Position numbers and translations under genes: made by a program | Virus record (IMG/VR): IMGVR_UViG_2541047942_000002 | DNA from: a virus | Lineage: Duplodnaviria; Heunggongvirae; Uroviricota; Caudoviricetes | Length of the DNA stretch: 39,163 bases | Direction: 5' to 3' (one strand) | The notes under the pieces: model-generated | Told to the model about the DNA's origin: nothing | Seen by the model: only the letters and a program-made list of their open reading frames with translations | Databases searched by the model: none | Part shown: piece by piece, positions 3,716 to 34,771 of the stretch | Position numbering within the stretch: position 1 is the first letter of the stretch | Layout: each line of letters starts with the position of its first letter

Positions 3716-4044
3716 CAGTTCACCACCTGTTCAAACTCTGCGCTGAACTCAACACGCAGCATACTGACCCGCGACGACCATTTTGCGCAGGTCACCTTTA
3801 TCTGCCGCCACTCATAAGGCGGCGTCCACAGAAAGGCTTTCCAGCCCCCGTGCTCAGCCAGAAACGACTCCAGCGCCGTGGCCTCCCAACGGGGAACAGA
3901 AAGCGTCACGCTGTACGTTTTCAGGTCGGCATTCAGCCCGGCAGGCGCTCGCTGGGAATAGCCATCACCAAAGCGCACTTTCCTGACGGAAGGGGCCGAA
4001 GCCACATCCATACCGGGTTTCACTTTCCAGCGGAAGGTCTTCAT
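3715..4044 (-). CDS. M: minor tail protein M
   Basis: 109-aa ORF (MKTFRWKVKPGMDVASAPSVRKVRFGDGYSQ...), lambda gpM-like, overlapping H stop and L start. Confidence 0.9.
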   Translation of the reverse strand: MKTFRWKVKPGMDVASAPSVRKVRFGDGYSQRAPAGLNADLKTYSVTLSVPRWEATALESFLAEHGGWKAFLWTPPYEWRQIKVTCAKWSSRVSMLRVEFSAEFEQVVN

Positions 4045-6617
4045 CGTCCACCTCCGGAGAACAGACCACCATCGCGCATCTGTGCCTGAATTTCATCACG
4101 GGCACCCTTGCGGGCCATGTCATACACTGCCTTCATCATCTGTGGACCTGGCAGACCATTCGTACCGTCGTTCTGAATCACCACGTGATTGTTCTGATTA
4201 AAATTAATGCCTTCAGCCCGCCGCATCTGCGCCGGACTTCCGGCACCGCCCACATAACCACCTTCCGCATAGCCCCGCATCAGGCGGTACAGGTTGCCGA
4301 CACCAATTCGGCTGGTTGCCTCCTTCGTGAAGACAAATTCACCACGGTGAACAATCCCCGCTGGCTCATATTTGCCGCCGGTTCCCGTAAATCCTCCGGT
4401 TGCAAAATGGAATTTCGCCGCAGCGGCCTGAATGGCTGTACCGCCTGATGCGGATGCGCCACCAACAGCCCCGCCAATGGCGCTACCGATACTCCCGACA
4501 ATCCCCACCATTGCCTGCTTAAGCAGAATTTCTGTCATCATGGACAGCACGGAACGGGTGAAGCTGCGCCAGTTCTGCTCACTGCCGGTCAGCATCGCCG
4601 CCATATTCTGCGCAATACCATCAAAGGTCTGCGTGGCTGCACTTTTAACCTGCGACATACTGTCCGTGGCGCTCTCTTCCCACTCACTCCAGCCGGACCT
4701 GAGGCCTGCCATCCAGCTCCCGCGAAGCTGGTCTTCAGCCGCCCAGGTCTTTTTCTGCTCTGACATGACGTTATTCAGCGCCAGCGAATTATCGCCATAC
4801 TGTTCCTTCAGGCGCTGTTCTGTGGCTTCCCGCGCTGCCTGCCGGTCAGTAAGCCCCCGGTTTTTCGCCTCAATGGCTGCCCGTTTTGCCCGTTGTTGCT
4901 GTGCGAACTTATCCGCCTGCTGCGCCAGCGCGTTCAGGCGCTCCTGATACGTAACCTTGTCGCCAAGTGCAGCCAGCTGGCGTTTGTACTCCAGCGTCTC
5001 ATCTTTATGCGCCAGCAGGGATTTCTCCTGTGCGGACAGCTGGCGACGTTGCGCCGCCTCCTCCAGTACCGCGAACTGACTCTCCGCCTTCCACAAATCC
5101 CGGCGCTGCTGGCTGATTTTCTCATTTGCTCCGGCATGCTTCTCCAGCGTCCGGAGTTCAGCCTGAAGCGTCAGCAGGGCAGCATGAGCACTGTCTTCCT
5201 GACGATCGCCCGCAGACACTTTCACGCCGGACTGTTTCGGCTTTTTCAGCGTCGCTTCATAATCCTTTTTCGCCGCCGCCATCAGCGTGTTGTAATCTGC
5301 CTGCAGGATTTTCCCGTCTTTCAGTGCCTTGTTCAGTTCTTCCTGACGGGCAGTATATTTCTCCAGCGGCGTCTGCAGGCGTTCGTAAGCCTTCTGCGCC
5401 TCTTCGGTATATTTCAGCCGTGATGCCTCAGACTCGGCCCAGTCCTTTGCTGCCATCTCTCTGGCCTTTTCAAGATCGGCCTGCAACGTGGCGGCTGAAA
5501 GCCCAAGTTGCGCATTCGCTCTGTCCTCCCATGCTCCCCGGAGATTGGCAAGAAATGCTGAGGTTTTACCGCGCCGGTGGCTTCGGCTCTGATACCACTG
5601 CCATTTTTTGTCCGCCTCATCAAAAGCCTTTTCTGCTTTCTCCAGCATTCCCTGGGCAGTGTCCGGGCGACCAATATCCAGCACCGAATCCCACATGGAT
5701 TTGAATGCCCGTGCTGTCCTGTCTGCCCAGGTCTCCAGCGTGCCCATGTTCTCTTTCAGGCGGCGGGTCTGGTCATCAAACCCTTTCGTTGCGGCCTCGT
5801 TCGCCGCCTGCAATGCCCCGGCTTCATCTCCGGAACGCTGCAACTGAGCAACATACGCAATCTGCTCCGCCGTCACGTTATGGAACTGACGTGCCATCGC
5901 TGTCAGTCCCGACGTCGGGTCTGTGGTCAGCTTCCCGAAGGCTTCAGCGACCTTGTCCACCTCCACGCCGGATGCAGAGGAGAAACGCGCCACACTCTGG
6001 CTGATCGCCTCAAACTGCTCACCACCACGCACACCGGCATTCACCAGCGCCGTCAGTGACTCGCTGGTCTGGTTAAACGTCAGCCCTGCCGCCTGCCCGG
6101 CTCTGGACAGGGCCAGAATACGATCTGCCGTCAGTCCCGCCTGATTGCCGGAAAGGACCAGCGTTTTGTTGAAATCGGACAGGGTTGAGTTGCCCTGATA
6201 CCAGGCATACGCCAGCGCACCGGTCGCCACCGCCAGCGAGGTGGCCCCCACCATCGGCAGGGTGATCGCACCGGCAAGCCCCCTGAACATGGGGATCATC
6301 CCGCCGAAGGAGTCCTTAACCTGACCACCCTGTTGCAGCAGGATCAGCCACGGACTTTGCCCGCCTGCAAGCTGCGTGGCCACGTCGGTGAACTGTGCAG
6401 GCAGCATACGCATGGCGGCTTTATACTGCCCGACGGAAATCCCCGCTTTCTGTGCAGCCAGCGCCTGTCGGCTCAGCGACTGTTCAACGACTGCCGCTGT
6501 TTTTTTCGCATCAGTTTCCGTACCGGAAAAATGACGCCTGACTCTGGCCATCTGCTCGTCAAATCTGGCCGCATCCAGACTTAAATCAACGACCAGATCG
6601 CCTACCGGTTCAGCCAT
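4041..6617 (-). CDS. H: tail tape measure protein H
   Basis: 858-aa ORF, coiled-coil-rich with Gly-rich C-terminal region; position between G/T and M; lambda gpH-like. Confidence 0.95.
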   Translation of the reverse strand: MAEPVGDLVVDLSLDAARFDEQMARVRRHFSGTETDAKKTAAVVEQSLSRQALAAQKAGISVGQYKAAMRMLPAQFTDVATQLAGGQSPWLILLQQGGQVKDSFGGMIPMFRGLAGAITLPMVGATSLAVATGALAYAWYQGNSTLSDFNKTLVLSGNQAGLTADRILALSRAGQAAGLTFNQTSESLTALVNAGVRGGEQFEAISQSVARFSSASGVEVDKVAEAFGKLTTDPTSGLTAMARQFHNVTAEQIAYVAQLQRSGDEAGALQAANEAATKGFDDQTRRLKENMGTLETWADRTARAFKSMWDSVLDIGRPDTAQGMLEKAEKAFDEADKKWQWYQSRSHRRGKTSAFLANLRGAWEDRANAQLGLSAATLQADLEKAREMAAKDWAESEASRLKYTEEAQKAYERLQTPLEKYTARQEELNKALKDGKILQADYNTLMAAAKKDYEATLKKPKQSGVKVSAGDRQEDSAHAALLTLQAELRTLEKHAGANEKISQQRRDLWKAESQFAVLEEAAQRRQLSAQEKSLLAHKDETLEYKRQLAALGDKVTYQERLNALAQQADKFAQQQRAKRAAIEAKNRGLTDRQAAREATEQRLKEQYGDNSLALNNVMSEQKKTWAAEDQLRGSWMAGLRSGWSEWEESATDSMSQVKSAATQTFDGIAQNMAAMLTGSEQNWRSFTRSVLSMMTEILLKQAMVGIVGSIGSAIGGAVGGASASGGTAIQAAAAKFHFATGGFTGTGGKYEPAGIVHRGEFVFTKEATSRIGVGNLYRLMRGYAEGGYVGGAGSPAQMRRAEGINFNQNNHVVIQNDGTNGLPGPQMMKAVYDMARKGARDEIQAQMRDGGLFSGGGR

Positions 6618-29190: not shown

Positions 29191-30531
29191 TCAATCTATT
29201 TTATCGGGATCAGGCTTCTTTTTAGGTAACTTCGGGGGCTTAACTTGCTGATGACTTTGCGTTCGGCGCGTAAGCCAGGGATGGTCAGCTTTAGATTTAA
29301 CATAGTATTTTGAGCGTAAATCAATACGGGCATTATCCACTCGTTCATGGACACTCTTTTCATCATCCAGTGGTATAGGCTCCGGGCCATCAACATACTT
29401 TTCCCAGCCCAGCGCTTTCCCGTCATACAGAACGTTAATTTCACCGTCAAAGTTCTCACATACAGTAACAACCGAATGCCTAAGTCGATATCCCCGGCCC
29501 TCACTGCGTACCTGAAACGCACTGCTTTTGTACTGGAAAGTGAGATTTTTAGACAGAACGCGCTTCGCCTGTAGGCTGAAGATATAACCCAGTTCCTCTT
29601 CAGAATGGTGCACATCAAGATGAGCATTATCAGTAGTACGAGGCGACGTAGCGAACCGGTTGTTATAGGCTTCAATAAAGGTCGGCAACCATGCATTTGC
29701 TGTTTCAATATCACTGATATTCTGAAGCCGCATTTCTTTGACCAGCCTGTCCTGTAGTGTCTGATTGGCGCGCTCTACCCGCCCTTTTGCCTGCGGGCTG
29801 TTGGCATGGATTGGCTCGATGCCCTGTGTCTTTATCGCACGAGTGAACTGGGTCAGCTCACCTTCCCGCTCTGGGTTATTTACCCTGAATATACTGTGTC
29901 TATCAGAGTAGAGAGCGAGCGGTACGCCATGATCATTAAGGTAACCCCGGAGGGTTTCCATGTAAGCCCGGGTTGTTTCAGCAGGCACAAAACGCAACGC
30001 CATCAACGCACTGGTGGCATCATCAATGAAAACGATCAGTGTACATCTGGGGCCTCGATTTTCAAACCAGTCATGAGGTGAGCCATCAATCTGGATCAGT
30101 TCACCGTAAGATGGTCGTCGCATGCGGCGTTGATATATACGGGCAATTTTACGACGGCGTTCACGCCATAACCCCTCTTCTATCATCCACTTTCTGAGAG
30201 TTTCAACGGATAAAGATAAACCGTGTATCTCGCGCAATTTTTCGCACGCAAACGTAGGTCCAAAATCAGCGTAACGGCCTTTGAGGAGTGAAATTACTGT
30301 TGCTCTGAATTCAGTAGAAAAGGAATTATTAGGATGCTTTCCACGTCGGTGGGAAACCAGACCAGAAGGCCCTTCATTTCTATACCGTTGCACCAGACGT
30401 TTAACCTGCCGAATAGAAATGCCAATGCGTGCCGCAGCTTGTTCCTGAGTAATATGTCGATTAATTGACTCCTGAATAATCTGAAGTCGGTGGAGTTCCT
30501 TATGACTCATCGTAACAGTCTCTTTGATCAT
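29191..30531 (-). CDS. DDE transposase of the retroviral-integrase (rve) superfamily, IS481/IS21-IstA-like, with N-terminal HTH
   Basis: 446-aa ORF with HTH-like N-terminus and an rve-type catalytic core (QIDGSPHDW ... LALYSDRHSIF ... SPQAKGRVERANQTLQD); element ends not resolved. Confidence 0.8.
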   Translation of the reverse strand: MIKETVTMSHKELHRLQIIQESINRHITQEQAAARIGISIRQVKRLVQRYRNEGPSGLVSHRRGKHPNNSFSTEFRATVISLLKGRYADFGPTFACEKLREIHGLSLSVETLRKWMIEEGLWRERRRKIARIYQRRMRRPSYGELIQIDGSPHDWFENRGPRCTLIVFIDDATSALMALRFVPAETTRAYMETLRGYLNDHGVPLALYSDRHSIFRVNNPEREGELTQFTRAIKTQGIEPIHANSPQAKGRVERANQTLQDRLVKEMRLQNISDIETANAWLPTFIEAYNNRFATSPRTTDNAHLDVHHSEEELGYIFSLQAKRVLSKNLTFQYKSSAFQVRSEGRGYRLRHSVVTVCENFDGEINVLYDGKALGWEKYVDGPEPIPLDDEKSVHERVDNARIDLRSKYYVKSKADHPWLTRRTQSHQQVKPPKLPKKKPDPDKID

Positions 30532-31990: not shown

Positions 31991-32492
31991 AATTCCATCC
32001 AGCTTTTTGTTGGTATTGCTGTCGATACGCAAGTTTGAAAGCAATTGCTTTTTCTATAAGTTCGTCAGTTTCACGATCCACTACGGCAGGATCAGCAAAA
32101 AGCAGTCCGGACTCCACCACATCGCCATATTCTTTGTTTAACCCGGCGATCATGTACGTGATGCTTTTTCCGTCACTAATTTCACGATACAACCTGAAAT
32201 CATTAATCCGAATAGCCTCCATAATTGCAGGCACTAGCGCCGTGAACTTTTCACGCTTATCCCTGGTGTCGATAGCCTTCCAGCGTTCGAATATCTTCAC
32301 TCGATTAACGCCAAGTGCTCGCTGATCAACCGCGCCACCTTCATCTGTGACACGCTGAACATCGATGTTCGGGCGCTCTTTCAAAGCCCAGAATGCTTCA
32401 GTGATTAATATCGTCGCCTGCTCCTGTGTCATTCCTGGTCGACATATCCAGGCATCCAGAGCCTCACGAGCCTGTTCAGGAGTGATTTTCAT
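31971..32492 (-). CDS. hypothetical early protein (173 aa) immediately downstream of the cro-like dicC
   Basis: ORF-track ORF MKITPEQAREALDAWICRPGMTQEQATILITEAFWALK...; start overlaps the dicC stop; no recognised function. Confidence 0.55.
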   Translation of the reverse strand: MKITPEQAREALDAWICRPGMTQEQATILITEAFWALKERPNIDVQRVTDEGGAVDQRALGVNRVKIFERWKAIDTRDKREKFTALVPAIMEAIRINDFRLYREISDGKSITYMIAGLNKEYGDVVESGLLFADPAVVDRETDELIEKAIAFKLAYRQQYQQKAGWNYEPSFC

Positions 32493-32706
32493 TGTTCAAC
32501 CGCCCCGCCCGCTTCGTCTTACGATATTCATCATAAACTTTGGGATCATACTGAAGCTCCCCGCCAGATGCCTCCTGTAGACGCATCGCGCGACCTTCGG
32601 GAACTAAATCCCCTTTCCAGCTATAAAGCGAAGCCAAACGAATACCTGCTGCTTGTGCAAGTTTTGTTTTTGAACCGAAATACAAAAGAGCGTCAGTTTT
32701 AAGCAT
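32476..32706 (-). CDS. dicC: Cro-like repressor DicC
   Basis: 76-aa ORF MLKTDALLYFGSKTKLAQAAGIRLASLYSWKGDLVPEGRAMRLQEASGGELQYDPKVYDEYRKTKRAGRLNNENHS; divergent from dicA. Confidence 0.9.
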   Translation of the reverse strand: MLKTDALLYFGSKTKLAQAAGIRLASLYSWKGDLVPEGRAMRLQEASGGELQYDPKVYDEYRKTKRAGRLNNENHS

Positions 32707-32789: not shown

Positions 32790-33197
32790 ATGGAAACAAA
32801 AAATTTAACTATCGGCGAACGCATCAGGTATCGTCGGAAAAACCTCAAACACACCCAAAGGTCTCTTGCTAAAGCCCTGAAAATCTCCCATGTGTCTGTA
32901 TCACAATGGGAACGGGGTGATAGTGAACCTACAGGGAAGAACCTTTTTGCCCTCAGCAAAGTATTGCAATGCTCACCAACATGGATTCTATTTGGCGATG
33001 AAGACAAGCAACCAACACCACCTGTTGAGAAGCCAGTTGCCTTATCCCCCAAAGAACTAGAGCTCCTTGAGCTGTTTAATGCACTGCCAGAATCAGAACA
33101 GGATACCCAGCTCGCCGAAATGCGAGCTCGAGTAAAAAACTTCAATAAACTCTTTGAAGAATTACTAAAAGCCCGTCAGCGGACAAATAAAAGATAA
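32790..33197 (+). CDS. dicA: cI-like HTH repressor DicA
   Basis: 135-aa ORF METKNLTIGERIRYRRKNLKHTQRSLAKALKISHVSVSQWERGDSEPTGKNLFALSKVLQCSPTWILFG... with XRE-type HTH. Confidence 0.9.
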   Translation: METKNLTIGERIRYRRKNLKHTQRSLAKALKISHVSVSQWERGDSEPTGKNLFALSKVLQCSPTWILFGDEDKQPTPPVEKPVALSPKELELLELFNALPESEQDTQLAEMRARVKNFNKLFEELLKARQRTNKR

Positions 33198-33363: not shown

Positions 33364-33519
33364 ATGGATACTATCGATCTTGGCAACAACGAATCTCTGG
33401 TGTACGGCGTGTTTCCAAACCAGGACGGCACGTTCACCGCAATGACGTATACCAAAAGCAAAACGTTTAAAACCGAAAATGGTGCCCGTCGCTGGCTGGA
33501 AAGAAACTCAGGTGAGTGA
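33364..33519 (+). CDS. ydfA: small early-left operon protein YdfA
   Basis: 51-aa product MDTIDLGNNESLVYGVFPNQDGTFTAMTYTKSKTFKTENGARRWLERNSGE from an internal ATG preceded by GAGGT. Confidence 0.7.
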   Translation: MDTIDLGNNESLVYGVFPNQDGTFTAMTYTKSKTFKTENGARRWLERNSGE

Positions 33520-33520
33520 T

Positions 33521-34096
33521 ATGGATTTCGACACAATCATGGAAAAGGCTTACGAAGAATACTTCGAAGGCCTTGCCGAAGGCGAAGAAGCTCTCAGCTT
33601 CAGTGAGTTTAAACAGGCACTCAGAATAAGAATGTGCTCTCACAATGACGCGGAGCACAAATATGAGAAGCAAAATCAGACCGCAGAAAATTTTGTTCTG
33701 GAACCCGGAGAAACGCTTTTCAAAATTCCCGTTACGTGCCCCATTTGCGGTTTTACATCAGAAGAACTTGACGACTCCTGTAACAATCAGGAAACAACCA
33801 AGTATGTCGAAGATGATACCGAGTGCGCACGAAGAACGATTATATCCACGAGTCCAAACTCCAGGACCAATAAATCTCACTATGAGAGGGTGATTAATCC
33901 ACTCCCCCAAACCAATAAAAAAGATGCCGGAGGACAAAAAACCCAATGGAACAACGGGATATCTGTCAAAAAAAGACGTTCCATTAAAGACAAACAACGC
34001 AGCGCCAACAACTGTAAGCGCTTTATACCAGTAATCAATTTTCATGTTCTTAAGCGGATTTATTGGTGGTTGCGACATTGCTTAATGAATCCTTAA
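33521..34096 (+). CDS. YdfB/YdfC-like protein as a single uninterrupted ORF (acidic N-terminus, CPICG zinc-ribbon-like motif, low-complexity basic C-terminus); 3' extent uncertain
   Basis: ATG at 33521 overlapping the ydfA stop (MDFDTIMEKAYEEYFEGLAEGEEALSFSEFKQAL...); a hydrophobic antisense ORF (33758-34078) covers the C-terminal half, so the true end is unclear. Confidence 0.45.
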   Translation: MDFDTIMEKAYEEYFEGLAEGEEALSFSEFKQALRIRMCSHNDAEHKYEKQNQTAENFVLEPGETLFKIPVTCPICGFTSEELDDSCNNQETTKYVEDDTECARRTIISTSPNSRTNKSHYERVINPLPQTNKKDAGGQKTQWNNGISVKKRRSIKDKQRSANNCKRFIPVINFHVLKRIYWWLRHCLMNP

Positions 34097-34355
34097 AACT
34101 GTGGTGATTTTAAGGATACCACCTCGCCTGACGTGGTTAAAAGCAGGCACACAACACGAAAGCGCACGGCGAAGTTCGTCTCACTGTACGGTGTCGTTAA
34201 ATTTAATTCGACCGTGCGCTTCCGGTTGTGGCAACCCGCAAAATGGCGCGGCGGTAAGTATGGCGGGGTTATTCCTTCCCCGTTGAGGACACCGGGTTGT
34301 CAGGTTGACCATACGCTTAAGTGACAACCCCGCTGCAACGCCCTCTGTTATCAAT

Positions 34356-34413
34356 TTTCTGGTGACGTTTGGCGGTATCAGTTTTACTCCGTGACTGCTC
34401 TGCCGCCCTTTTT
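34356..34413 (+). ncRNA. dicF: DicF small regulatory RNA (ftsZ-targeting) with its intrinsic terminator
   Basis: Sequence TTTCTGGTGACGTTTGGCGGTATCAGTTTTACTCCGTGACTGCTCTGCCGCCCTTTTT matches DicF as I recall it; GGCGG...CCGCC stem plus U-tract; located between the ydfB/C-like ORF and dicB. Confidence 0.8.
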
Positions 34414-34582
34414 AAAGTGAATTTTGTGATGCGGTGAATACGGCTAAGCGCACGCGGAACAGTTAAAACCAAAAACAGTGTTATGGGTGGATTCTCTGTA
34501 TCCGACGTTAATTGTTAACTGGTTAACGTCACCTGGAGGCACCAGGCACTGCATCACAAAATTCATTGTTGAGGACGCGATA

Positions 34583-34771
34583 ATGAAAACGTTATTACCA
34601 AACGTTAATACGTCTGAAGGTTGTTTTGAAATTGGTGTCACTATCAGTAACCCTGTATTTACTGAAGATGCCATTAACAAGAGAAAACAAGAACGGGAGC
34701 TATTAAATAAAATATGCATTGTTTCAATGCTGGCTCGTTTACGTCTGATGCCAAAAGGATGTGCACAATGA
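34583..34771 (+). CDS. dicB: cell-division inhibitor DicB (MinC-activating)
   Basis: 62-aa product MKTLLPNVNTSEGCFEIGVTISNPVFTEDAINKRKQERELLNKICIVSMLARLRLMPKGCAQ from the ATG at 34583. Confidence 0.9.
   Translation: MKTLLPNVNTSEGCFEIGVTISNPVFTEDAINKRKQERELLNKICIVSMLARLRLMPKGCAQ

Follow-up and report, generated by a model that had tools for sequence, protein, structure and literature searches.

Are two proteins read from opposite strands of the same 321 nucleotides of viral DNA, or is one of the two reading frames only a shadow cast by the other? The question is raised by a locus in the IMG/VR virus record IMGVR_UViG_2541047942_000002 (Caudoviricetes), a stretch of 39,163 nucleotides that was analysed at its full length and is called the window here. 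On its plus strand, an open reading frame (ORF) of 191 aa, the plus ORF, extends from 33521 to 34096. On its minus strand, an ORF of 106 aa, the minus ORF or membrane gene, occupies 33758-34078. Both had been pointed out in an earlier note on this DNA, and both are present as described there. The note had placed the minus ORF over the C-terminal third of the plus ORF; the overlap is real and the fraction is larger, with the shared stretch covering plus codons 80-186 of 191, or 56% of the plus ORF. The two frames lie in exact codon register, and the overlap takes in the entire 107-codon membrane gene, the plus frame staying open to just beyond its start codon. We conclude that the locus is probably a two-strand module of about 0.5 kb, which temperate phages carry in their immunity and early regions, with both of its strands coding for protein.

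The frame that dictates the overlap

Substitutions between lineages pile up at the third positions of the minus frame (counts at codon positions 1/2/3 of 11/7/35, 8/10/22, 38/23/55 and 26/18/51). The ratio of nonsynonymous to synonymous change (pN/pS) in that frame is 0.17-0.42, and 0.17-0.28 for close pairs. In the plus frame, pN/pS over the overlap is 1.2-1.6. Because both the substitution pattern and pN/pS favor it, the minus frame dictates the nucleotide sequence of the overlap. The earlier suspicion that the hydrophilic plus-strand tail mirrors a hydrophobic protein is borne out.

The minus ORF is, by these measures, a real gene, and its product is a predicted three-helix inner-membrane protein of a widespread, uncharacterised family. 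AlphaFold2 places helices at residues 17-32, 42-62 and 85-105 and adds a beta hairpin (mean predicted local distance difference test score, pLDDT, 85; predicted template modelling score, pTM, 0.72), in agreement with the three transmembrane-like segments originally noticed. Sixty homologs at 34-99% identity come from Yersinia, Herminiimonas, Reinekea and metagenomes. Those of full length (100-115 aa) at 34-58% identity occur in Yersinia, Herminiimonas, Reinekea and many metagenomes. An exhaustive profile search gave 486 clusters (50% identity), which with few exceptions are stand-alone proteins of ~100-115 aa, and genome and viral scans put the range of the family at Proteobacteria, Nitrospirales, Desulfobulbia, metagenome-assembled genomes (MAGs) of Actinomycetes and Phycisphaerae, and phage contigs. 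The family also has non-phage chromosomal members. Two motifs are conserved, NPLxxLxIDYWYKA and GLGEWINHPL; the invariant residues within them are W-Y-K-A, where helix 1 begins, and G-x-G-E-W-x-N-H-P, where helix 2 ends.

Searches gave the protein no name. Its best Pfam matches, at E = 0.11 and 0.28, fall under the cut-off; no family in NCBIfam, PHROGs or PADLOC matched it, with 42 family members scanned too, and a fold search of its model against PDB and BFVD returned no significant match. A type I toxin-antitoxin system was considered and rejected. The minus protein has 106 aa, where such toxins have fewer than ~60, and it carries three helices and a conserved motif on the cytoplasmic face; half of the family has no antisense ORF partner, and no Rfam small RNA lies over the locus.

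Two distant groups of family members deserve mention in their own right. Three copies with identical called coding sequences lie on an Arcobacter sp. chromosome (L015, L016 and L017), their antisense frame closed by 10 stops, and the triple copy suggests carriage on a repeated mobile element. In Desulfobulbia MAGs, a divergent subfamily (L027-L032) sits in a conserved chromosomal neighbourhood that is not a prophage, next to genes with hydrogenase-like translations and a small CxxC protein.

One might still suppose that the plus ORF is the sole real gene and the minus ORF its shadow, as annotators who call anything here call the plus ORF and a family, phrog_35040, exists for it. Other evidence runs the other way: the substitutions peak at minus-frame third positions, full-length minus homologs occur in many phyla with 3-17 antisense stops in their genes, and AlphaFold2 is confident for the minus product and poor for the plus product. 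We hold this reading to be exceedingly improbable.

Annotation of the segment is uneven. It is present in 806 of 5426 complete E. coli genomes (~15%), nearly always at ≥99% identity, and is carried by the isolated phage HannyBb (PP925841.1); strain ATCC 25922 has the module at 98.8% identity. In 36 of 40 sampled genome rows, no annotation lies under the segment. The membrane gene has WP accessions and is nevertheless unannotated in all sampled complete-genome records. NCBI's annotation pipeline (PGAP) treats DNA near-identical to 33521-34582 in three ways, calling a truncated ydfB pseudogene followed by a ~960-bp gap, a 191-aa hypothetical protein (WP_000344958.1, its name for the plus ORF product), or nothing. 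Both products are listed at NCBI only as hypothetical proteins, and the literature, searched under accession numbers, gene names and topic, yielded no account of the locus. A conserved membrane-protein gene thus goes without annotation in most RefSeq records despite its frequency in complete E. coli genomes. In Shigella flexneri (L026, CP182557.1, ~6001-6348), a copy of the module has decayed, both of its frames being interrupted by frameshifts and stops.

Openness of the plus frame and its upstream part

Exact codon register means that a plus-strand stop can arise within the overlap only from TTA, CTA or TCA on the minus strand. These three codons are completely missing from the membrane gene of every partner-bearing lineage, despite 8-18 Leu and 2-6 Ser codons and a third-position GC content of 0.36-0.45. 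General avoidance of rare codons or of TpA was rejected as the cause, since other rare codons, such as ATA, AGA and GGA, are freely used. The in-register antisense frame has 0 stops and the four other alternative frames have 2-16 (2-10 in the window). Most of the 94-163 E. coli-type loci sampled have the two ORFs intact.

Could such a frame stay open by chance? The plus ORF beyond its YdfB part might be an unselected shadow of the membrane gene, not meaningfully translated: shadow ORFs arise most easily in the in-register antisense frame, the overlap has a plus-frame pN/pS above 1, and PGAP mostly does not call the plus ORF. Under a null built on how neighbouring genes use their codons, the probability that the frame is open is 0.12 for the window by itself and 0.002-0.29 per lineage. 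With the gene's own third-position composition, it is 0.002 for the window and 0.001-0.022 per lineage. The chance account fares poorly when the family is taken together. All sampled sequences were pooled into 52 clusters at 70% amino-acid identity, and 26 of these are fully open, against 0.72 expected; among clusters with GC ≤0.50, 11 of 34 are open, against 0.10 expected. The closed clusters, which carry 3-17 stops, match the null (observed versus null 5/5.9, 7/7.0, 11/8.9 and 17/15.4). Fisher's test (4/4 versus 0/16) gives p = 2e-4. A chance shadow would also leave unexplained the purely synonymous plus-frame pattern directly upstream of the overlap and the motif-to-overlap spacing that is kept in distant hosts, both described below, and we judge it improbable.

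By these counts the family is bimodal, with solo genes that have a random antisense frame and paired genes whose antisense frame is kept open. The phage-borne half, to which the window belongs, has zero antisense stops where 3-7 are expected, and in nearly all paired lineages the frame is stop-free over at least 85% of the overlap. Plus-frame openness appears, on this evidence, to be maintained by selection. Signs of selection on the second frame are seen in its openness and in the conservation of its 5′ part; its amino acids within the overlap are not conserved.

The conserved 5′ part ends in a short motif that abuts the overlap. Its form is PG-x9-CPxCGF (aa 62-79, 33704-33757, plus strand), and it contains CPICGF at aa 73-78 (33737-33754), the motif that had been noticed in the acidic N-terminal part of the plus ORF; the acidity holds too, the head having a net charge of -9. 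The pattern (E)xxFxIPxxCPxCGF is present in every enterobacterial-type lineage, even where the membrane protein is down to 51-58% identity. Codons of this knuckle differ only at plus-frame third positions (ATT/ATC/ATA, CCC/CCG/CCA/CCT, TGC/TGT, GGT/GGA, TTT/TTC). Over its 18 codons, plus-frame pN/pS is 0.27-0.69 with pS of 0.35-0.97, near saturation in most lineage pairs. By these patterns, purifying selection acts on the plus frame itself directly upstream of the overlap.

The same junction is found far from E. coli. As in enterobacterial lineages, 7 codons separate the first Cys from the overlap where PG...CPxCG[FCH] stands in register in a prophage of Roseateles aquae, in the viral contig L204 and in several metagenome lineages, and sister lineages have PGSVxIDxxxxxVxLxGW at the equivalent position. 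What lies further upstream varies, from a fusion to ydfB in the window, to the ydfA ribosome-binding site and ATG in L123-L127, to a Shine-Dalgarno sequence and ATG of its own in L117; an in-frame upstream start is always present. In L207, L208 and L013 no N-terminal domain can be recognised and the frame is open all the same, with a Shine-Dalgarno sequence and ATG 2-14 codons before the overlap.

Known protein families give little help with the plus ORF. Its sole family match, phrog_35040, is the same ORF as called in phage records and is not independent; a Lar-like assignment was rejected (PHROG match at E = 0.38). The knuckle resembles the second knuckle of rubredoxins and zinc ribbons, PGT.F..IP..W.CP.CG, in its PG...IPxxCPxCG motif. 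It differs in that the plus ORF has one conserved Cys pair, which the PGSV...GW variant has lost. A full zinc-ribbon or rubredoxin-like domain was rejected, as only CPxC is conserved, no conserved second pair occurs upstream or in the tail, and Pfam gave no match. In a motif scan, IPxxCPxCGF also turned up in unrelated small phage proteins that bear a second Cys pair, and for this reason we describe it only as a single rubredoxin-like knuckle.

Beyond the knuckle, the basic hydrophilic tail occupies aa 80-191 (33758-34093, plus strand), its codons 80-186 being antisense to the membrane gene. Its net charge is +9 in the window and +7 to +15 in enterobacterial lineages, with +2 in L204 and -4 in L006. 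An AlphaFold2 model of the plus ORF, from a shallow alignment of 7 sequences, has pLDDT <50 for residues 39-191; for the tail, this is consistent with disorder and does not prove it.

What then became of the expectation that one of the two frames is a shadow? It was right in that the minus frame sets the sequence of the overlap, and wrong in that the plus frame is selected on its 5′ side and, in many diverged lineages, stays free of stops within the overlap far more than expected. Codon-position conservation, which the earlier note had proposed as the arbiter, settles that the minus frame dictates the overlap; in the knuckle it follows the plus frame. The note had also looked to an antisense stop in most homologs as the mark of a shadow; many stops do occur in about half of the lineages, and none in the phage-borne half that includes the window.

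The immunity-region setting and a proposed working

The region around the two ORFs is the immunity and early-left part of a lambdoid prophage of the DicA/DicC type. It contains dicC (32476-32706, minus strand) and, all on the plus strand, dicA (32790-33197), ydfA (33364-33519), the plus ORF, DicF (34357-34408) and dicB (34583-34771). Within the early operon that DicA represses, the plus ORF comes second. It starts one base past the ydfA stop (33519 to 33521), and would be 205 aa long if begun at the alternative ATG at 33479. In K-12, DicA represses the dicBp transcript, which extends from ydfA over dicF and dicB (PMC10448788).

Relative to K-12, a module of ~490 bp (roughly 33623-34112) has been swapped in for the 3′ end of ydfB and all of ydfC, with edges that are visible in the comparison. 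The plus ORF had been thought to span both of these genes. By tblastn, it holds only YdfB residues 1-34, at 100% identity (33521-33622, plus strand), after which the homology to K-12 stops; the last 8 residues and the stop of YdfB have been replaced, and the ORF continues, by way of a linker, the knuckle and then the overlap, to 191 aa. The 72-aa YdfC of K-12 gave no tblastn match anywhere in the window at E ≤ 10. Only in the variants L125-L127 does ydfC lie downstream of the module. There (e.g., L126 1890-2705) the plus ORF uses the ribosome-binding site and ATG of ydfA, passes through the membrane gene and the conserved element beyond it, and joins ydfC in frame; the called proteins are 227-271 aa long.

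The only conserved neighbour of the membrane gene is a CI-like repressor. A search of the non-phage loci for a same-strand partner gene found only CI-like repressors and, in one clade, primase. On lambdoid contigs, the membrane gene always adjoins the repressor gene and points against the early-left operon, and it has dicA or a CI-like repressor for a neighbour in the window, L007, L023, L116-L123 and L204. This position, in the immunity region beside the repressor and on an exchangeable module, would suit a superinfection-exclusion or moron gene. In L117, a PL-like promoter with three flanking operator-like repeats lies just past the terminator of the repressor gene, and the first ORF to follow it is the partner ORF. 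In Roseateles, it follows a cro-like gene and precedes primase. Members of the family with closed frames are mostly co-directional with their neighbours; the orientation analysis is noisy and has exceptions. Between the PL-like promoter and the partner ORF of L117, we also observed an early leader (4600-4860, minus strand) with a long GC-rich hairpin and T run (GGCGGTTGCAGG...CCTGTAACCGCCCTTTTT), which is terminator-like.

The non-coding DNA beside the start of the membrane gene is conserved as well. A perfect 10-bp inverted repeat, ATCCTTAAAA-N9-TTTTAAGGAT (34089-34117), holds both the stop of the plus ORF (34094-34096) and the Shine-Dalgarno sequence of the membrane gene (the complement of 34090-34094). 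The same hairpin architecture occurs in five lineages, with compensatory changes (AAAGC/GCTTT, AAAGG/CCTTT). In RNAalifold and single-sequence folds, the fold z-score is significant only for the window's copy, and we claim no RNA structure because the z-scores are weak elsewhere. Adjoining the gene start is a conserved non-coding element, AGGATACCAC..GCCTGA.GTGGTTAAAAGCAGGCAC (34112-34152), with an invariant TGGTATCCT on its minus strand that is possibly an extended -10 of the membrane gene. The stem and core motifs are invariant among lineages whose coding regions have diverged to 51-58% amino-acid identity. Taken as a whole, 34089-34152 varies less between lineages than the coding sequence does. 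It contains GCCTG/CAGGC and CCAC/GTGG repeats that are interleaved, and it may serve as a promoter and operator or as an RNA element. Rfam had no match for it, finding only DicF and a sub-threshold hit to the small RNA STnc100, and a terminator scan gave only a weak terminator-like site.

These arrangements suggest how the module may work. The repressor, DicA or CI-like, would hold the early operon off, leaving the membrane gene as the only one of the pair that can be expressed in a lysogen. The membrane protein would be a lysogen-expressed product, plausibly acting in superinfection exclusion or in some other host-membrane function; a role of the exclusion type is suggested because its gene sits beside the repressor, and the family has its non-phage members too. 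Upon derepression, RNA polymerase and ribosomes would travel head-on through the membrane gene, silencing it and making the plus protein. Selection for the open frame would then be most simply understood if ribosomes have to keep translating the early transcript where it crosses the embedded antisense gene. Continued translation would block Rho-dependent polarity or RNA decay before the downstream early genes (dicF and dicB, or primase in Roseateles). The co-directional placement of closed-frame members is suggestive in this respect, as it fits the anti-polarity option. A direct role of the probably disordered tail is a close second explanation for the open frame.

In its strictest form, anti-polarity would make the plus product irrelevant, with the frame open only to keep ribosomes on the early transcript and the tail a by-product. 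This variant of our preferred explanation is a live though tentative possibility. Plus-frame pN/pS in the tail is above 1, and the in-frame upstream parts seem interchangeable, whether a ydfB fusion, a fusion at the ydfA start, a start of its own, or the 2-14 codons of L207, L208 and L013. The end of the ORF is variable, as L125-L127 run on into ydfC; the module lies upstream of early genes within one transcript, and closed-frame lineages are mostly co-directional with their neighbours. However, the variant leaves unexplained why a conserved domain (PG...CPxCGF or PGSV...GW) should stand exactly at the boundary and in frame. Lambdoid early transcripts are normally made termination-resistant by other means, the L206 and Desulfobulbia copies are antisense islands with closed frames, and the study of the K-12 operon (PMC10448788) holds no Rho or polarity data for the region.

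The fixed junction instead speaks for a full-length plus protein that is itself functional, a knuckle with a long, basic, disordered tail in which composition counts over sequence; it could regulate early genes in the manner of N, bind nucleic acids or counteract the membrane protein, and the two ORFs would then be a true dual-function pair. Deep lineages share the in-frame junction of domain and tail, nearly all paired lineages are stop-free over at least 85% of the overlap, enterobacterial tails are all net positive, and the L117 ORF, first after its PL-like promoter, has the position of N in lambda. Against these points stand the lack of amino-acid-level constraint in the overlap, the varying tail charge (down to the values of L204 and L006), the lack of any family, fold or literature match, and the persistence of natural plus-frame nonsense variants. 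We find this account rather doubtful. Also unlikely, if conceivable, is a fuller version in which the locus is an ancient, conserved sense/antisense pair with both products functional, the repressor choosing the strand and the tail having its own role, for example in N-like early regulation or in counteracting the membrane protein or its mRNA.

Several observations weigh against our preferred reading, a two-strand module coding on both strands. The tail has no amino-acid-level constraint, and what argues for it is stop avoidance and nothing else. Two CPxCG-bearing lineages, L374 and L380, stop ~16 codons before the overlap ends, and L206 and the Desulfobulbia subfamily are antisense to their surroundings with a closed antisense frame. 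Among E. coli-type copies, the plus frame is broken with the membrane gene intact in 5 of 28 and 4 of 37 unique sequences. The membrane frame alone is broken in 3 of 37, and indels break both frames in 5, so these counts do not discriminate between the frames, because both are disrupted at similar rates. The knuckle has a single Cys pair, and the PGSV...GW variants have none, so metal binding by it would be no more than a possibility. A consensus promoter scan found none upstream of the membrane gene. Finally, we only infer the anti-polarity rationale and the role of the membrane protein.

Other features of the window and of related loci were seen in passing. A transposase-like ORF of 446 aa lies at 29191-30531 amid prophage replication and ydaT-like genes. 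The window has an intact dicC and replication region, both lost from strain 504239, which is identical at the locus studied here. The sub-threshold STnc100 match (34406-34615; 34.6 bits versus a gathering score of 47) extends from the dicF terminator to the dicB start. Just past the conserved element, on the early-operon strand, L117 has a tRNA-Asn gene (3952-4033). PGAP calls a "tRNA-OTHER" at the equivalent place in strain A34, and the coordinates of this observation include L114 2203-2280. The window's own DNA upstream of dicF (~34200-34350) aligns with the L117 tRNA region and is not recognised as a tRNA.

Comparison with known systems

Whether bacteria and phages have long antisense overlapping genes is disputed, since evolutionary support is missing for most candidates. 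The signature at this locus is clean and quantitative: a null that predicts the antisense stops in half of the family fails completely in the phage-borne half. If confirmed, the locus would provide a tractable model, in common E. coli strains, of two physico-chemically opposite proteins made from the same codons, with the choice of strand tied to the lysis-lysogeny switch. The idea that phages keep a frame open over embedded antisense morons to protect their early transcripts would then be directly testable.

The nearest relative by position is the Qin dicBF operon of K-12 (PMC10448788). Like its counterpart there, the plus ORF comes after ydfA and before dicF and dicB, and its first 34 residues are those of YdfB. 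In K-12, YdfB ends at 42 aa and ydfC follows, whereas the window has the two-strand module at that place.

A second comparison concerns the membrane gene. Lambda RexB and the superinfection-exclusion (Sie) proteins of temperate phages are lysogen-expressed membrane proteins encoded beside the repressor gene. The module likewise places a gene for a small multi-pass membrane protein beside an immunity repressor, in an exchangeable unit for which lysogenic expression is plausible. Unlike those genes, the membrane gene is embedded in, and opposed to, an early lytic operon and is not co-transcribed with the repressor. Its product has no sequence or fold similarity to RexB or the Sie proteins, and it belongs to a family that has non-phage chromosomal members.

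Finally, several antisense overlaps have been published in E. coli, including oloz0137, ano, laoB and nog1 of enterohaemorrhagic strains (EHEC). These are ~60-100 codons long, are backed by ribosome profiling (Ribo-seq) and phenotypes, and are reported as lying outside phage-derived regions (PMC9927249, PMC5960689). The EHEC overprinting candidates share with our locus an opposite-strand ORF on a mother gene, an in-register antisense frame and a hydrophilic, probably disordered younger product. Here, in contrast, the overlap spans the whole mother gene, and the overlapping ORF has a conserved, non-overlapping N-terminal domain. The evidence is also of another kind, being evolutionary (26 of 52 clusters open, in several host groups). 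By that evidence, the locus adds what appears to be a new variant to antisense overlapping coding, and one with unusually good support.

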